From: Promethearchaeota archaeon
GTDB lineage: Archaea; Asgardarchaeota; Lokiarchaeia; Sigyniarchaeales; SOKP01
Assembly: GCA_030599585.1 (NCBI GenBank)
Contig: JAUVNS010000017.1
Location: 28,471-92,470, forward strand
Length of the DNA: 64,000 nt
Reading direction: 5' to 3'
Shown: positions 48,868 to 55,868 of the stretch, one piece after another
How positions within the stretch are numbered: the stretch's first letter is position 1
Layout of the letters: every line of letters starts with the position of its first letter
Position numbers and translations under genes: made by a program
Notes under the pieces: generated by a model
Told to the model about the DNA's origin: nothing
Database searches by the model: none
Seen by the model: only the letters and a program-made list of their open reading frames with translations

Positions 48868-49716
48868 TTAATTAAAAATTACTTTTGAATGGTCACAATA
48901 ATCACAAAAAAAACAAATTCTCTCTGAACCAGGAAAATATATTGTAGGGGGTAAGTCTTCAACATTTTTACATTTTATTGCTTTTCTAATTTTAATTTTT
49001 AACTTATTTAATTCTGAATCTTTATATTTCCTTAATTTTTTAATTTTTTGAAAACCACTTTGAGGCGAACCCGGTTTAGTATTCCATAATTCTAAATTTA
49101 TATCCTTCTCTTGCTTTTCATCAAATAGTTCTTTATATAATCTTAATTGTCTATTGTGTTTAGTAGGGCTAGGTCTTCCCGTTTTTAATTCAATAAATAA
49201 AAATTCGTTAATTTCTTGACTAAAACAGACTAAATCTATTTTCCCTGTCAGCAAAACCCCGGGGAGAATTTCATATGAGACATTGAATTCATCATCGATA
49301 ACCGAGTTGATTAAATTATCATTATTCACATCAATTAATGATTTAGCATGTTCTATAAGTATGGGAAGTTGAACATTTATGTTATCCATCACTTCAGCAT
49401 ATTCAGATTTTTCAAGAATGTTAAAATTAATTTGTGTCTTCAATAGAAAAATCCAATAATCTAACACGAATTTAAATGCTAATCCAATTGATTCTTCTAA
49501 AGATTTTTTTAATCTGTAGTAGTAATATTCAATATAAGGAAATAGTTTTTTAAATGTAATTGGTAGTAAAGTGTGAATTATTTTTCCAATTCTCATATAA
49601 ATATTTGGAGCTTCTTCTTGAAGAAATCTTTTCATTAACCTTGAAATAATGTAAATATATAACTTTCTTTCACATGTATTTTCCGAAATACTTGAAATAC
49701 CTAAAGTAAAATGCAT
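48868..49716 (-). CDS. Cas4-like PD-(D/E)XK nuclease
   Basis: N-terminal SSI...CER, GKIIH, E, TGKIDLV, IELKTG, QLRLY and C-terminal CFFCDYC. Its ATG overlaps the TAA of the upstream Argonaute-like gene. Confidence 0.88.
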   Translation of the reverse strand: MHFTLGISSISENTCERKLYIYIISRLMKRFLQEEAPNIYMRIGKIIHTLLPITFKKLFPYIEYYYYRLKKSLEESIGLAFKFVLDYWIFLLKTQINFNILEKSEYAEVMDNINVQLPILIEHAKSLIDVNNDNLINSVIDDEFNVSYEILPGVLLTGKIDLVCFSQEINEFLFIELKTGRPSPTKHNRQLRLYKELFDEKQEKDINLELWNTKPGSPQSGFQKIKKLRKYKDSELNKLKIKIRKAIKCKNVEDLPPTIYFPGSERICFFCDYCDHSKVIFN

Positions 49717-51587
49717 TAGAATGGACTTTCCTCGTTATATTTATAGGGTATCTTATTAAATAAGTCTTTATTTTTATATCGTATTAAAAATGGCAGATTA
49801 ACTTTAGAAAAACTCTCTGTTTGATAGAATGTTAAATTAAATATTATCTGTAAGATATCCTTTGCCTTAATTTCATCTAATTCTGAAATTATTTTTACCA
49901 ATAAAGGATTTGGAAGACCATTTTCTGGAGTATCAGGAAATCCGGTATTTATTAATAAATAACTATTAGTGGTATTGCTAAATAATTGGATGTAGGAGCC
50001 ATTTTTAGGTATTTCATGTTTATTTTGAAAATGATGAAAAATTCTTGTATTCGGTCTTTTGATTAAAACACAATAAGATTTATCTTTTAAAATTTTGATG
50101 AAATCTTCAGAAAAATTCCCTTGTTCAAAAAGAAATAGTTCATTTATATATTCAAATTTATATTTTTTTTCTAAAATTGTGAGAATGTCATTGAGAATGT
50201 CTTCCCTTTCTTGATTAATTGAACTCCTGAAAAATATATCTTTGAATTTCATCAAATTTTTACTCGCAGTATTAAAAATAACACCAGAAATTTTAAATAC
50301 TTCAAAATCTGGATCGAAATTTACACCAAATGAAATTATCTTTTTAAAAATAGGTGGATTATCAAAGAACCATATCAAATTTTTATTACTTCTAAAATTC
50401 AGAGCTAACCAAATTAACAGTAAATTCTCACCAAAATCTTCGATAATTTCTAGAGTAGAAATATTGATAGCTTTTGAAATCTCTGCCTTTCTTTTTGCGG
50501 CAGCATAAAAATATTCAGAACCTTTATGTTTATCATTAATTAATACTAAATAGGGATAGTTGTTCGAGAAATTGAATTCATCTATATTATCGATATATTT
50601 TATTACTTTAATTTTGAAGAAGTATGAGTCTTCAAGTTTTTTAAGATAATCTTCTAAAATTTTATTAGATTCTAAATTATCTTGTAATTTAAAATTATCA
50701 ACAATTACCTCAATTTCTATTATTGGTATTAATTTTAAATTATTTTTAAAAAACTTTAATAAATTTTCTTCGAATGAAATGTCTTTATTCAAATCTATGT
50801 TTTGGTTTAAAAAATTGACATAAATTGCATTAGGATAAATAAAAGAATTAGAATCATAGGTTGAATTAATCTCAAGTTCAGTTATAAAATTGAAACCCTT
50901 AAGTTTATTAAAAATATATACGCGATATTCCTCAAATCGATCAAAAAATTTTTTTGGATTCAAAAAAACTAGAGAAGACCATTTGGAATCTCTTTCTATC
51001 AATTTTCTATCTTTAAAATTTAATGGTAAATCGAATAAATTTCCATAAATCTCATAATTTGGAAGGAAACTAATGATAAATTTATTTTCATATATAAAAA
51101 TTTCATGGTTTACGGATTTGTAGATTTTAATTTCATCATTTTTTTTTGATTCTTTTATTAAAATTGTAGATACTATTTCTTTTCTGTAAGACAACTTACC
51201 TTTAGCAGACTTTCCTAGAAAAGTTCTAACATCTATAGGCTTTTCAAATCCATATTCAATGTATAAGAAATCAATAAGAGTGTGTAGAAAACAAGAAATT
51301 CCTTCAGCTTTTTTTAAAGGGGCTAAATCGACTTCCTCAATAATCTCTCCAAGATAATTTCTAATAATAATTTCATTATTAAAAATGAACTCATCCATAC
51401 TAATTAAATAAAATTTATCAGCTTCCTTTAAAATTCCAAAAGGAAGGTTACTCTGATATTCACCTCGTTTAATATAGTAAATCAATGTTGAGATAGGAAT
51501 ATTATCACGATTAAACTCAATCGTATAACTTTTTAACTCATTTAAATTAATTGTTCCATACCATCCAGGAATTATAAGATTAGATAT
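49716..51587 (-). CDS. Second Argonaute-like (MID-PIWI) protein, degenerate and catalytically inactive; ~623 aa if ATA start (track start 51485)
   Basis: MID-like FYAAAKRKAEISKAINISTL...NL..IWLAL. PIWI-like ISFGVNF, LIKRPNTRIF, IPKNGSYIQL, YLLINTG, GLPNPLLV and ILQIIFNLT...VNLPFLIRY. Frame is open to 51587, behind GAGATGA. Confidence 0.75.
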   Translation of the reverse strand: MSNLIIPGWYGTINLNELKSYTIEFNRDNIPISTLIYYIKRGEYQSNLPFGILKEADKFYLISMDEFIFNNEIIIRNYLGEIIEEVDLAPLKKAEGISCFLHTLIDFLYIEYGFEKPIDVRTFLGKSAKGKLSYRKEIVSTILIKESKKNDEIKIYKSVNHEIFIYENKFIISFLPNYEIYGNLFDLPLNFKDRKLIERDSKWSSLVFLNPKKFFDRFEEYRVYIFNKLKGFNFITELEINSTYDSNSFIYPNAIYVNFLNQNIDLNKDISFEENLLKFFKNNLKLIPIIEIEVIVDNFKLQDNLESNKILEDYLKKLEDSYFFKIKVIKYIDNIDEFNFSNNYPYLVLINDKHKGSEYFYAAAKRKAEISKAINISTLEIIEDFGENLLLIWLALNFRSNKNLIWFFDNPPIFKKIISFGVNFDPDFEVFKISGVIFNTASKNLMKFKDIFFRSSINQEREDILNDILTILEKKYKFEYINELFLFEQGNFSEDFIKILKDKSYCVLIKRPNTRIFHHFQNKHEIPKNGSYIQLFSNTTNSYLLINTGFPDTPENGLPNPLLVKIISELDEIKAKDILQIIFNLTFYQTESFSKVNLPFLIRYKNKDLFNKIPYKYNEESPF

Positions 51588-51605
51588 CTAAATCATCTCG
51601 TGATA

Positions 51606-53828
51606 CTATAGATAAAAAGGTATTTTAAAGTCAAAAGAATCCAAATTATATTGAATCCCTTTCTGAAGTGTTGATCTAGCAAAATGTAGGGGAAATGGTA
51701 GTTTTGTTTCGTTTCTCACTAATGCTGGATTAAATCTGGTGAATTTAAACACTTTTTCTAAAATTTCGTTAATATTATTCGACTTGGAAGCTAAATTTCT
51801 AATTTTAATACATGATGGAGTACCGATTTTTGTTTTGGAAGTTATAATATGACCGCTTTGGTTGTTTAGAATCACTCCAGATCCTGGTTTAGGAGGATAT
51901 ATCATCCACTTCTTATTATCATCTTGTTCAAATAACCTAACTAAGGAGGTATATTTTATACTTATAATGCTATAATCTTTTATTTTAATTAATTCTTCAA
52001 TTGACTCTAGTATATTACTTGTGATAGATCCAAATACATATATTAAAATTTTTGAATACTCTGATAACTTACGCTTTAATAAAAGGAAAAACTCTTCTTT
52101 GAATCTTTCCGGTTCTTTATCGATATATCTCCCTTCTATAAAATCTCCTTGATTTGTAAAAAATAATAAAGATGATACTATATGATTTTTAAAAAATTTA
52201 ACATTTAAACCAACTATTATTTCATTTTTTCTATGGACTTCTTCTAAAATCCATGTTTTACCTCCAGATTTTAAATATATTTGAAGATATATCAATGATC
52301 TTAAAGGTCCATATCCTAAGTTATTTAAAGTATTTAGATTAATTGATTGATTTGGAATGTCTTTTTCAATTAAAAAAGCTTTAACATTATTATATATTTC
52401 TAGATGTTCCATGTCAACAATTATAACATAGAAATGATAATTCGTTGATTCTTCACTCTTAACAATCTTTTTTACATCTTCTAAGTTCCTTATTTTAGAT
52501 TTTGTTAATTTTATGTTTTTTACTTTTGAAAATGACTGATAAGTCTCAATTTTATTATGTTTCGATTCTGAACTTCTTAAAAGATTTTCGATTACATTCA
52601 ACGATTTATCTGATTTAAAATATAATAAATGAAAAAATAAGAATTCTTTTCCATTACAACTTGAACTATAAAATCCTTTATCATTATATTCAATAGAGGG
52701 GAATTCTGTACTGATGTCGTCCCTTAATAAATAAGTAGGATTATTAAGTTCAACCTTTTCTATATCAGATGAATTTTCACTTAAAATTCCTTCTGGGATT
52801 ATAGGAAAATTTATGTCTCTTATATCAGATATAACATTCGAATACTCATCTTTTATCAACTTAAATCTTTCAAAAGGTTTTGGTTGAATTTTTCTCATTA
52901 GACTCTTTGCATCCGAACCTGCATCACTAGTGTCGGGAATAACCCTTATTATGTCTAATGGATAAGAATATACTTTTTCAGGATTATTCCAAAAGAATTT
53001 TTGAATGATAGGTTCTTTATCTATAATTTTATCACTGATAAGACCAGTTGCACAGATTTTTTCATTTTTATAATAATCTATTAAATCTATTACGGTTTTA
53101 CTAGGATTTTCATTAACAAATTTTAAATCTCTAATATTACCGAAATAAGAAGGATAATTCAATTCACATATACCAAAAGGATTTAAATAATCAGGGCAAT
53201 TTTGCACGCAACATATCTTTTCTGTATTTTTATCGCTATAATAGTCTACTTTATTTTGGTCCCATAAATCTCTTAGTGTACTCTCTGAGAAAAATTTTGA
53301 TTTTGGTTCAATTATTATTCCCACAGAAGATTCAGAATTTAATAATATAGGTTTATATCTAAAACCTAGATGGACATGTATTATTCCAAATTTTTCGTCA
53401 ATTTCAGGAGAAGTCGCTTGATATACATTTTTTCCGTATTCTTCATATACAATATAATTATCTTCCCTATTTCTTAACACAACAGCGATTCTTTCACCGA
53501 TATATCTTAAAAAAAGCGTTTTAATTTCTAAATTTTTAATTGCTTTATTCAGACTGATTTTGATCCTTGAGACCTGACTATGGTCAATATTTAGATTCTT
53601 CTGGAGAAGAAATTCTAAAAGATTAATTTTATCTAAGATATCGACATCTGAAATAATAGAATTTCCATATTGGAAAATTGTAATTGTTTTGTATTTTTTT
53701 CTTAGTTTTTTTACTAAATAACCAATAGTTCTATATGTATTTTCTTCAATATGTTCTAAATGATAGGAATATAAGTTTAGAGAATAATCACTTAATTTTT
53801 TTAATTTAACAATATTCGTTAAAAGAAT
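51606..53828 (-). CDS. Long prokaryotic Argonaute (N-L1-PAZ-L2-MID-PIWI), catalytically inactive; ~740 aa if ATT start (track start 53480)
   Basis: PAZ-like DLIDYY...YSYPLD. MID YNNVK...IPNQSI...LQIYLKSGGKTWIL. PIWI IIVGLNV, VRLF, PKPGS, GTPSCI, KLPFPLHFA and C-terminal PFYL. Frame is open without a stop to 53840. Confidence 0.88.
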   Translation of the reverse strand: MLLTNIVKLKKLSDYSLNLYSYHLEHIEENTYRTIGYLVKKLRKKYKTITIFQYGNSIISDVDILDKINLLEFLLQKNLNIDHSQVSRIKISLNKAIKNLEIKTLFLRYIGERIAVVLRNREDNYIVYEEYGKNVYQATSPEIDEKFGIIHVHLGFRYKPILLNSESSVGIIIEPKSKFFSESTLRDLWDQNKVDYYSDKNTEKICCVQNCPDYLNPFGICELNYPSYFGNIRDLKFVNENPSKTVIDLIDYYKNEKICATGLISDKIIDKEPIIQKFFWNNPEKVYSYPLDIIRVIPDTSDAGSDAKSLMRKIQPKPFERFKLIKDEYSNVISDIRDINFPIIPEGILSENSSDIEKVELNNPTYLLRDDISTEFPSIEYNDKGFYSSSCNGKEFLFFHLLYFKSDKSLNVIENLLRSSESKHNKIETYQSFSKVKNIKLTKSKIRNLEDVKKIVKSEESTNYHFYVIIVDMEHLEIYNNVKAFLIEKDIPNQSINLNTLNNLGYGPLRSLIYLQIYLKSGGKTWILEEVHRKNEIIVGLNVKFFKNHIVSSLLFFTNQGDFIEGRYIDKEPERFKEEFFLLLKRKLSEYSKILIYVFGSITSNILESIEELIKIKDYSIISIKYTSLVRLFEQDDNKKWMIYPPKPGSGVILNNQSGHIITSKTKIGTPSCIKIRNLASKSNNINEILEKVFKFTRFNPALVRNETKLPFPLHFARSTLQKGIQYNLDSFDFKIPFYL

Positions 53829-53845
53829 AATAAAATCGCCTCATT

Positions 53846-54529
53846 CTACTCTTTAAACTCTAGAAAATTGATTTTTAACCTAAGATTTTTATTTCTTTTT
53901 TTTATAAAATTTGAAAGGATATCATATATTAAATAAATCCCATAATTCAGGGGAATATAGGTGCATTTCTCTTTCTTCAAAGTTTTATCTAGGTTAGAAA
54001 TATAAAGGATAATTGGTTCAGATTCCGTAATAAGTGGTTTCATTTGACTTCTAATTGAGAATGAGTCATTTGTTATATTTAAATGAGTTTGTATTAATGA
54101 ACTTTTAAAAGTCGACAATAAGATTTTTTTGTTGTCATCTACTGAAATACATTCATATGTCCCAAGAGATTCTAAGCTGTTTAAAAGAACTTCATTAAGA
54201 CTTTCAAAATTTAAAGAAGATTCATCAGTATAATTAATAATTTGACCAGAAATAAGATTTTGGTATGAAATTAATTCATTTTTGATAGGATAATATTCAA
54301 GTTTAGGAGTAGATTTTGAAAGAAAATTTTGTGTATTTGGATAATAAGTTATCTTCTCATGAGCAGTTAGTTCTTTCAAAATTTGTTCAATAATTTCTTT
54401 AAATTTAACTAGATTTTGAACTAAGATATTTTTATCTATTAAATATCTGAGTATGTCATTAATGTTTCCTTTCTGATATTCTTCAATATATTCAATTACA
54501 AAATCTCTATAATCTTCCGTTCTGATCAC
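53846..54529 (-). CDS. Hypothetical protein with probable N-terminal winged helix, in the Argonaute operon
   Basis: Helix-helix-helix-wing pattern (FVIEYI...NINDILRYL...IEQILKEL..HEKITY). Ends 17 nt before the extended Argonaute start. Confidence 0.55.
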   Translation of the reverse strand: MIRTEDYRDFVIEYIEEYQKGNINDILRYLIDKNILVQNLVKFKEIIEQILKELTAHEKITYYPNTQNFLSKSTPKLEYYPIKNELISYQNLISGQIINYTDESSLNFESLNEVLLNSLESLGTYECISVDDNKKILLSTFKSSLIQTHLNITNDSFSIRSQMKPLITESEPIILYISNLDKTLKKEKCTYIPLNYGIYLIYDILSNFIKKRNKNLRLKINFLEFKE

Positions 54530-54566: not shown

Positions 54567-55868
54567 TTATATGACATAATCATCTGGAAGTTGACCGAGA
54601 AATCTATTGTCTGATGTATTCTTTACAATTAACAATTTTATATTCCCTGATTTTACCGAATTATAATTGTTTATGTACCATTTTTTTATTTGATCAATAT
54701 ATCCTTGAGTATCAATCTCTTTAACAAGAAAACCGCGATAACTTTTCCCCTTCGAATCAAAGAAGGTTAATGGAGGACCCGAATTTTCTTTTTTTTCTAG
54801 ATAGACATCAACAATTTTATATTCATTCAATTTATTTCTTTTATTTTCTCGAATTTGATGAACTTCGTACCATTGTTCTATTGGATAATAATGAATTACA
54901 TTAAATGTTATTATTTTTTCCTCTTCAAACTCCCATTTACGATTCTTATTATAAAAAAATACTATGGGTGTAATGGTTTCTTTAGAAAGATTAATTTTAT
55001 AAATATTAAATTGAACAGGAATTTCGTTTAGAGAGAAAATATCTTTTCTAGATTTAATATCTGCCAGAAGTGAGCCAACTCCAATGTTTTGAATTACTTG
55101 GTTTGACCAATAATAGTAATCATGCTTATGTCCAGAAAAAATTAAGTTTATTCTATTTTCTTCTAAAAAATTTATGCTTATCTTATTTTGTGCAAGATTT
55201 TCTAATGGATGATGACAAATTAAGAACTTATTCATACATTCAAAAACTCTTTGGCCATAGATTCTTTCTAATTCTTTGATAAGTTCTGATAAATCTTTTC
55301 TTAATAATACTCCTACATCCAAAAATTGTTTATCTAAATATTTATTAATATCTTTTACATTAAGATCTTTAATTTCTTCGTCGATATATCTTTTTTCAAT
55401 ATTCTTACAGGAATTTATAGCAATAAATATTGAATTATATTCTTTTAAATACTCAAAGCTAGCTTGATTTTCCTTAAAGTTCTTTGATAATTTAGTTTTA
55501 AATTTTTTCTTATTTTTTTTCATGAAATTTATAAAATCATTAAACTGTGAATTTGATTCTATAGAATCACGGTTTAAATCGTGGTTACCATTAGCGATGC
55601 ATATTGGTATTTTATTCTCAATAAATATATGAAGAAAATCTTTCAAATGCTCATTATGAAGATCAACTACTTTACCTTTGGATGTTATATCTCCAGATAT
55701 CATTACCAGTTTAATTGAATATTCAGAAATGACTTTTTTTATCGTGTCTTTTAAAAGCGAATAAAACTCGGTAAAAGAAGTTCTAAAAGTTGATTCATTA
55801 GCTATAGATTTAACTCCAAAATGTAAATCTGAAATATGAATGATGCTATAGATTATATTATGATTCAT
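54567..55868 (-). CDS. Calcineurin-like metallophosphoesterase with unknown C-terminal domain
   Basis: HISDLH, SGDIT, GNHD, CHHP and SGHKH all intact. Confidence 0.9.
   Translation of the reverse strand: MNHNIIYSIIHISDLHFGVKSIANESTFRTSFTEFYSLLKDTIKKVISEYSIKLVMISGDITSKGKVVDLHNEHLKDFLHIFIENKIPICIANGNHDLNRDSIESNSQFNDFINFMKKNKKKFKTKLSKNFKENQASFEYLKEYNSIFIAINSCKNIEKRYIDEEIKDLNVKDINKYLDKQFLDVGVLLRKDLSELIKELERIYGQRVFECMNKFLICHHPLENLAQNKISINFLEENRINLIFSGHKHDYYYWSNQVIQNIGVGSLLADIKSRKDIFSLNEIPVQFNIYKINLSKETITPIVFFYNKNRKWEFEEEKIITFNVIHYYPIEQWYEVHQIRENKRNKLNEYKIVDVYLEKKENSGPPLTFFDSKGKSYRGFLVKEIDTQGYIDQIKKWYINNYNSVKSGNIKLLIVKNTSDNRFLGQLPDDYVI

Follow-up and report, generated by a model that had tools for sequence, protein, structure and literature searches.

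The 64,000-nucleotide stretch of a Promethearchaeota archaeon genome analyzed here (contig JAUVNS010000017.1, positions 28,471 to 92,470 of the forward strand; the whole stretch is hereafter the window) carries two adjacent Argonaute genes on the minus strand, AgoA and AgoB. AgoA (51606-53831) is a catalytically dead long Argonaute of ~740 residues, and AgoB (49716-51596, ~623 codons) is a catalytically dead Argonaute of N-L1-L2-MID-PIWI architecture without a PAZ domain. They belong to a conserved, mainly Asgard-archaeal cassette made up of a swappable effector, a small protein resembling a winged helix-turn-helix (wHTH) protein, AgoA, AgoB and a Cas4-like nuclease. An earlier note on this DNA had read the departures of AgoB from the MID-pocket consensus as decay. 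From the sequences, the pocket looks rebuilt rather than lost: the tyrosine and the first lysine are kept, the glutamine is replaced by lysine and the last lysine by arginine, and the C-terminal plug is unconserved. On balance, we consider it probable that AgoB keeps a more basic 5'-phosphate pocket, which is probably metal-independent, and acts as a specialized second protomer that controls the nuclease.

The fold and 5'-end pocket of AgoB

By sequence, AgoB gives only a weak, sub-threshold Pfam match to Piwi (6.8e-4) and nothing in PADLOC or NCBIfam. Searches of the PDB with AgoA or AgoB as single sequences return no match, and only family profiles matched solved Argonautes. Clustered at 50%, the AgoB family comprises 49 representatives; its alignment consists of 33 full-length members, which, two close orthologues excepted, are 17-40% identical to AgoB of the window. 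An AlphaFold2 model built on this alignment has a predicted local distance difference test score (pLDDT) of 87.8 and a predicted template modelling score (pTM) of 0.88, and Foldseek matches it to solved Argonautes with an E value of 3e-21. With VIA, model residues 1-606 superpose on the Asgard HrAgo1 (8r3z) with a Z of 24.3 and an r.m.s.d. (root mean square deviation) of 3.8 over 474 residues, and on many other Argonautes, over the same residues, with Z 22-24. Aligning the AgoB family (33 sequences) to the AgoA family (14 sequences) with hhalign gives a probability of 97.7-98.8% and an E value of 2e-12 over nearly the full length; a shallow comparison of 8 with 7 sequences gave an E value of 0.22 only. 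Model, Foldseek, VIA and hhalign together confirm the bilobed N-L1-L2-MID-PIWI fold.

In the model, the N domain leads into three long L1 strands, which stop at residue 173, and these are followed by three helices (182-221), L2, a Rossmann-like MID domain from about residue 281, and PIWI. By the model's secondary structure the last L1 strand contains the motif FIISFLPNYEI (residues 161-171; 51048-51080, minus strand), and the claim of the earlier note that the spacer behind it is too short for a PAZ domain is borne out. Only the three helices lie between this strand (160-173) and L2, at pLDDT 85-93, leaving neither room for a PAZ domain nor a sign of one, and Pfam PAZ matches none of the 33 family members. 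The slicer tetrad is also missing. Both the alignment to KmAgo and direct reading place GVNF (411), FEQG (478) and RYKN (593) where GxD, RDG and HYxD would be expected, and the catalytic positions of AgoA are likewise substituted, by GLN (544), FGS (601) and HFAR (719). Read from these residues, both Argonautes are shown to be catalytically inactive. Judged by its model, AgoB is a genuine Argonaute, though an extremely diverged one, and lacks PAZ. The loop RTFLGKSAKGKLS (residues 112-124; 51189-51227, minus strand), which sits between the L1 helices and strands in a part of low model confidence, ranks with the best-conserved parts of the protein in its family, with K120 and G121 nearly invariant, and may contact nucleic acid or a partner.

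The pocket of AgoB lies at 50391-50507 on the minus strand and reads Y-K-K-R, so that the canonical MID 5'-phosphate motif, (Y/H/R)-K-Q-K, is not present. With residues counted from 51560, Y352 (50507-50505) and K356 (50495-50493) belong to the motif YAAAK, K363 (50474-50472), which stands for the glutamine, to ISKAI, and R390 (50393-50391), which stands for the last lysine, to NFRS. The C-terminal tail ending in NEESPF (49719-49757, minus strand) is followed by the stop codon TAA (49718-49716). These motifs had been picked out by the earlier note, and all were verified codon by codon. The equivalence of the residues comes from hhalign, which pairs Y352 with Y483 of AgoA, K356 with K487, K363 with Q498, and R390 with K524; the model confidence at the four AgoB residues is pLDDT 86-94.

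Conservation across the family speaks for a working pocket. K356, K363 and R390 are each present in 33 of 33 members and Y352 in 30, the other three having H, at an overall identity of about 20%. Among 544 columns only seven well-occupied ones are invariant (zero entropy), and these three residues are among them, which for three of four pre-specified pocket positions corresponds to a hypergeometric p of 5e-6. In addition, K or R is frequent at positions +2 to +4 after R390. YKKR or HKKR is found in 23 of 25 rows of the B family, whereas 18 of 19 other Asgard Argonautes, drawn from 400 genomes, carry YKQK, HKQK or YRQK. Because those Argonautes are canonical at the same positions, Y-K-K-R appears specific to the AgoB family. 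Pairwise comparison with an orthologous cassette that is 84% identical gives ratios of nonsynonymous to synonymous substitution (dN/dS) of 0.215 for AgoA and 0.223 for AgoB, with the other three genes at 0.15-0.23, so AgoB is under purifying selection equal to that on AgoA. Since the two substituted residues are both basic and invariant across a very diverged family, the pocket looks redesigned and working rather than decayed, and the decay proposed by the earlier note does not stand. The case carries a warning that departures from a consensus motif are not to be read as decay before conservation across the family has been checked.

The tail behaves differently from the pocket. Residues 602-614 have pLDDT below 50 and are unplaced in the model, and the ending EExP[FY] is kept in 11 of 33 relatives, the remaining tails being unrelated to it. 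The EExP[FY] tail closes AgoB at all five metallophosphoesterase-containing loci that were looked up (the window, L001, L002, L004 and L010); because these five loci form one clade, this co-occurrence is not independent evidence. A stand-alone Argonaute of 734 residues at locus L057 (5799-8000; G320:C51) has H, T, K and R in the pocket columns, with K at the Gln position and R at the last Lys, and ends in LPF. Its pocket is AgoB-like but it scores better with the AgoA profile, and it may be an intermediate form.

AgoA and its relationship to AgoB

AgoA keeps the canonical Y-K-Q-K pocket at 52269-52394 on the minus strand. Counted from the codon at 53840, Y483 (52394-52392) and K487 (52382-52380) lie in YNNVK, Q498 (52349-52347) in IPNQ and K524 (52271-52269) in YLKSGG. 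The protein ends in PFYL (51609-51620, minus strand; last residue L744), the equivalent of the carboxylate plug of prokaryotic Argonautes, followed by TAG (51608-51606). What the earlier note had reported of this pocket and C terminus was confirmed at the codon level. The 14 AgoA orthologues were taken from contigs adjoining AgoB relatives, and word-indexed homologue searches did not extend the family. Within it, Q498 and K524 are each conserved in 13 of 14, K487 in 9 of 14 (with R in two more) and Y483 in only 2 of 14, making the first, stacking tyrosine the variable position of this pocket. A hydrophobic C terminus of the form P-[FWI]-[YF]-[LI] closes 13 of the 14 orthologues; among the 19 other Asgard Argonautes most of the picked open reading frames (ORFs) likewise end in a short hydrophobic or aromatic stretch (FYL, MFI, WFL, WWY).

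PADLOC prokaryotic Argonaute (pAgo) models match AgoA at 9e-35 and 5e-31. In the search with the family profile the best solved relative is AaAgo (1.4e-19, 73 bits), followed by AfAgo (3e-7) and EcAgo (4.8e-5), and the profile aligns the Y, K, Q and K to the stretch YYKLK...PSQ...SKLGG of AfAgo, which backs the equivalence of the pocket residues independently of hhalign. The earlier note had suggested superposition on solved Argonautes, and both MID-PIWI lobes do align to AfAgo: AgoA residues 360-744 superpose on chain residues 2-427 of 1ytu, the last of which is the final residue of AfAgo, with Z 30.7, and AgoB residues 235-614 with a VIA Z of 22.5; the AgoB model contributes no PAZ domain to such a comparison. 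Model superposition, alignment of hidden Markov models (HMMs) and motifs thus find the MID-PIWI fold, the Y-K-Q-K pocket and the hydrophobic C terminus all present in AgoA.

Only the MID-PIWI part of the AgoA model is good; the N-terminal lobe is poor, with pLDDT below 50 over residues 126-357. This lobe includes a PAZ-like region (52962-53213, minus strand) with the cysteines C210, C215, C225 and C263 (within 53052-53213) and a YsYP junction motif. Among the orthologues that have the region, C263, Y291 and P294 do not vary, and the remaining three cysteines are nearly invariant. The junction from PAZ to L2 aligns to AaAgo from residue 235, and ~110 residues separate L1 from it. Pfam PAZ finds no match in the AgoA family; the junction motif aligned to AaAgo and the four conserved cysteines suggest a PAZ domain, in a part of the model where pLDDT is below 50. 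The four cysteines resemble a metal site grafted into PAZ, again where model confidence is low.

Gene callers begin AgoA at GTG 53480, but its first 120 codons, which include no ATG, GTG or TTG, are also conserved in L010 and L001. Translation probably starts at ATT 53831 or at 53828, the latter codon being a non-canonical ATT, behind a GAGG motif. The arrangement of GAGG or GGAGG followed by ATT is common to three genomes (window 53826-53848, minus strand; L010, 3040-3070; L001, 5752-5790). These sequences point to initiation of AgoA at ATT, or by re-initiation after an upstream TAG. A one-nucleotide frameshift from an out-of-frame ATG at 53844 was considered and rejected, as L010 has no ATG there and the N-terminal 120 codons are open and conserved in three genomes.

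The two proteins are distant from each other. With the AgoA profile no AgoB relative scores above 24 bits, against 73 bits for AaAgo. An unrooted, quick IQ-TREE analysis of 59 MID-PIWI rows (leaving out the partial L027_A, and L039, L046 and L054, where the wrong ORF had been picked) resolves A, B and the other Asgard Argonautes each essentially as one group, with support of 96, 89 and 87 in the Shimodaira-Hasegawa-like approximate likelihood ratio test (SH-aLRT). The A and B subtrees share broad groupings, and the pair from L030 is the outlier in both. Profile scores and tree indicate that AgoA and AgoB are an old, co-diversifying pair and not recent paralogues; the possibility raised by the earlier note that they are in-paralogues is contradicted, since A and B form separate groups. 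As an unrooted tree of three groups the analysis excludes a recent A/B duplication, is compatible with a very old one, and is silent on whether A and B are sisters. A complex prediction with AgoA residues 360-744 and full-length AgoB scored 0.05, where the mark is 0.32, and weighs neither way.

A proposed two-Argonaute sensor and the alternatives

The two Argonautes are differentiated, because AgoA has a canonical pocket, a PAZ-type region and a hydrophobic end, whereas in AgoB Lys stands for the Gln and Arg for the last Lys, the tail is non-canonical and PAZ is lacking. In the reading we favour, AgoA would be the conventional guide holder, using these three elements, an arrangement by which AfAgo and the EcAgo of BPAN secure a guide 5' phosphate by way of Mg2+. 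AgoB would have given up PAZ and the metal plug and kept a strongly basic 5'-end pocket, with which it most likely still grips a 5'-phosphorylated nucleic-acid end. Eukaryotic Argonautes such as human Ago2 hold the 5' phosphate without Mg2+, additional Lys and Arg residues supplying the charge; there, unlike in AgoB, the Gln is retained, and the extra basic residues are supplied by other sites, behind the last Lys and within PIWI. The extra positive charge of AgoB would replace the Mg2+/carboxylate pair as those residues do, and a pocket that has dispensed with this pair would agree with the unconserved plug and the additional Lys and Arg. AgoB would then be the second protomer of a two-Argonaute sensor, recruiting or licensing the Cas4-like nuclease encoded directly behind it.

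By analogy, published precedents make each of these steps plausible. The PAZ-less fAfAgo binds guides with a 5' phosphate (PMC10954474), and in EcAgo and AfAgo it is the C-terminal carboxylate that holds Mg2+ (PMC13535254). In EcBPAN the nuclease is switched on only via Ago-Ago dimers formed through MID-PIWI, and it docks at the MID/PIWI interface (PMC13535254). The Cas4-family nuclease ACE1 forms a heterodimer with its pAgo (PMC12094033).

Several points weigh against this reading. That Y352, K356, K363 and R390 cluster in space is deduced from alignment and secondary structure only, and contact with a protein or with another ligand would account for the invariant basic residues equally well. 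We know of no characterized Argonaute with K at the Gln position. The whole AgoB family is known from sequence and model, from which its 5'-phosphate binding is deduced. Under a published rule, a MID domain whose third position is not Q, or whose last is not K, counts as non-canonical MID*, of unknown specificity (PMC6299218). Finally, the host genome has a TAG at codon 3 of AgoB, which may therefore not be made full length.

The earlier note had proposed that the pair has subfunctionalized into a sensor Argonaute and a pseudo-Argonaute adaptor. The differentiation itself stands, as does the constant position of AgoB beside the nuclease, and the pseudo-Argonaute part is contradicted by the conservation of the pocket throughout the family. 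We accordingly think it improbable that AgoB no longer binds a guide and is a mere scaffold linking the sensor AgoA to the Cas4-like nuclease, even though two of its four pocket positions are non-canonical, it has neither PAZ nor a conserved C-terminal plug, it is a MID* variant by the published rule (PMC6299218), and the nuclease always follows it directly, the coding regions overlapping. Against a mere scaffold, the substituted residues are invariant at ~20% family identity and are basic, as suits phosphate binding, dN/dS equals that of AgoA, and the full N-L1-L2-MID-PIWI channel architecture is kept; loss of PAZ, for its part, is compatible with guide binding (PMC10954474). Alternatively, the pocket may have been retargeted, to a 5'-triphosphate or modified end, to the terminus of a target or of a cleavage product in place of a guide, or to a nucleotide-like signal, and the two Argonautes would then read chemically different inputs. 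The greater positive charge (K363, R390 and the frequent K or R at +2 to +4 after R390) and the loss of the Mg2+-holding C terminus would suit such a change, for which the respecified MID-OH group of MpAgo is a precedent (PMC6299218). However, nothing separates this from plain binding of a 5' monophosphate, and AgoB retains the stacking Tyr and the first Lys of ordinary 5'-phosphate pockets; we regard retargeting as unlikely.

The codon-3 TAG raises a further explanation, that AgoB of the host genome has been freshly inactivated by a nonsense mutation and the asymmetry is that of an intact Argonaute beside a dying one, whatever the family does elsewhere. The start of the gene (51585-51596, minus strand) reads ATG (51596), ATT, TAG (51590-51588) and ATA before the open frame, whereas the orthologues have CAG (L010) or CAA (L001) at codon 3, and the next canonical start, TTG 51485, costs 37 residues of the N domain (gene callers give a 560-residue product). 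Against inactivation, the remaining 620 codons are open, with a dN/dS of 0.22, and ATA stands directly after the TAG in a cassette whose genes seem to use non-canonical starts (ATT for AgoA in three genomes; AgoB of L002 without ATG). In a metagenome assembly, one C>T change may also be an error or a minor variant. We give fresh inactivation a low probability; the TAG may represent an assembly variant or a lesion of very recent date, or translation may begin at the ATA behind it and so bypass it. Read-through with pyrrolysine was rejected: PylS and PylD fall below the cut-off in the host genome, while a Methanosarcina control passes, so no pyrrolysine machinery is recognizable there. Read-through is unlikely both because of this result and because TAG ends AgoA.

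A bolder extension of the two-protomer reading, which we offer as speculation with the odds against it, is an obligate AgoA-AgoB hetero-Argonaute, in which an Ago-Ago dimer of the kind that activates BPAN would be hard-wired and each protomer would read a different nucleic-acid end. AgoA would take a 5'-phosphate guide in a Mg2+-dependent manner, with the 3' end in a cysteine-metal PAZ, and AgoB a second strand or a processed end in a Y-K-K-R pocket without metal, as a prokaryotic counterpart of the eukaryotic Lys/Arg solution; the Cas4-like nuclease and the swappable effector of the first gene would be set free only when both Argonautes are occupied. Should AgoB indeed bind 5' ends without metal, it would define a new MID class beside the Y/H/R-K-Q-K and MID-OH types and would represent a route to a eukaryote-like, cation-free pocket inside the Asgard archaea. 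It would also offer a natural heterodimeric Argonaute sensor in which to dissect how Argonaute dimerization licenses effector nucleases.

Described Argonaute systems and the cassette

To our knowledge, prokaryotic Argonaute systems use one Argonaute species, and the literature searched, whose coverage is incomplete, gave no description of two Argonautes in one operon. Here, a second and unrecognizably diverged Argonaute has accompanied the first throughout the radiation of the cassette, its pocket following a fixed alternative recipe, Y-K-K-R. One close likeness is to the long-B pAgo-nuclease (BPAN) systems, where a catalytically inactive long pAgo is also encoded with a nuclease and the dead Argonaute senses the target and switches the nuclease on; AgoA moreover has the X-K-Q-K pocket and C-terminal Leu of EcAgo. 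BPAN, however, has one homodimerizing Argonaute, whereas the two here are very different (best cross-family HMM score 24 bits), and AgoB has Y-K-K-R and no PAZ. Its nuclease is bAgaN rather than a Cas4-like enzyme, and the cassette adds an effector gene (a metallophosphoesterase or a Cap4-type nuclease) and the wHTH-like gene.

The PAZ-less long-B pAgos and the fAfAgo heterodimer share with AgoB the N-L1-L2-MID-PIWI arrangement without slicer residues (PMC10954474). They differ in that AfAgo has the canonical Y123/K127/Q137/K163 and a C-terminal carboxylate, where AgoB has Lys for the Gln, Arg for the last Lys and a tail that varies, and in that AgoB is paired with a second, complete Argonaute. 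APACE1 resembles the cassette in its Cas4-family nuclease, which has one N-terminal and three C-terminal cysteines, is encoded beside the Argonaute and binds its MID-PIWI lobe (PMC12094033). The Argonautes there are single, active long-A slicers, unlike AgoA and AgoB, which lack the slicer residues; ACE1 and ACE2 were described in bacteria, and the nuclease here is known by Pfam PDDEXK_1 and weak Cas4 matches.

In SPARTA, SPARSA and SPARDA, too, a PAZ-less dead Argonaute module depends on an effector, and APAZ and short pAgo together make up N-L1-L2-MID-PIWI. Those short pAgos have near-consensus HK/RK-Q-K pockets (PMC6299218) and a partner with a fused effector domain, whereas AgoB is a single chain with its own N-L1-L2 and no effector domain, and is not MID-PIWI-only. 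The MID-OH (MpAgo) group and MID* also show a family-wide conserved departure from the YKQTNK consensus, and theirs marks a changed end specificity (PMC6299218); the MID-OH pockets turn hydrophobic and lose the Tyr, whereas that of AgoB turns more basic and keeps both Tyr and Lys.

In the window, the cassette comprises five tightly packed genes, all on the minus strand, in a low-GC (~25%) stretch. A metallophosphoesterase gene (54567-55868; PF00149, 2e-14, with weak matches to SbcD and anti-phage phosphoesterases) and the gene of the 227-residue wHTH-like protein (53846-54529) precede AgoA and AgoB, and the Cas4-like PD-(D/E)xK nuclease follows (48868-49716; PF12705 (PDDEXK_1), 5e-9, with weak Cas4 matches). 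The ATG of the nuclease overlaps the AgoB stop codon by one nucleotide, and the two are translationally coupled. The host assembly has 4.85 Mb in 52 contigs, and the nearest relative of the cassette lies in a metagenome-assembled genome from the Promethearchaeota (Asgard).

Cassettes with two distinct Argonaute genes were found at 14 loci, mostly Asgard. The order AgoA-AgoB-nuclease is kept at 13 of them (the window, L001/L024, L002, L004, L005, L006, L008, L010 and L025-L029). The fourteenth, L030 (2245-9126; G082:C28), is a remote version split into two divergent modules on opposite strands, one with the wHTH protein and an AgoA-like gene, the other with an AgoB-like gene and a Cas4-like nuclease. 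Every locus that has downstream sequence carries a nuclease-sized gene directly after AgoB. A Pfam scan of this gene, which left out L025-L028, matched PF12705 in L001, L002, L005, L006, L009, L010 and L030 and gave no match in L004 and L008. The first gene varies: the near clade has a metallophosphoesterase, distant cassettes a protein with a Cap4-type double-stranded DNA endonuclease domain (PF14130; L026, 9392-10459; L025, 8860-9954). Relatives of AgoB are present in 11 of 400 genomes from the phylum and, within the genus, in only 1 of the 41 other genomes, a patchy distribution typical of defence genes. On another contig, the genome that carries AgoA and AgoB has a third Piwi-domain ORF of ~503 residues (L032, 1453-2961; G000:C24:2671-3516 region), which matches Pfam Piwi with 32.6 bits and sits on a very long branch of the tree.

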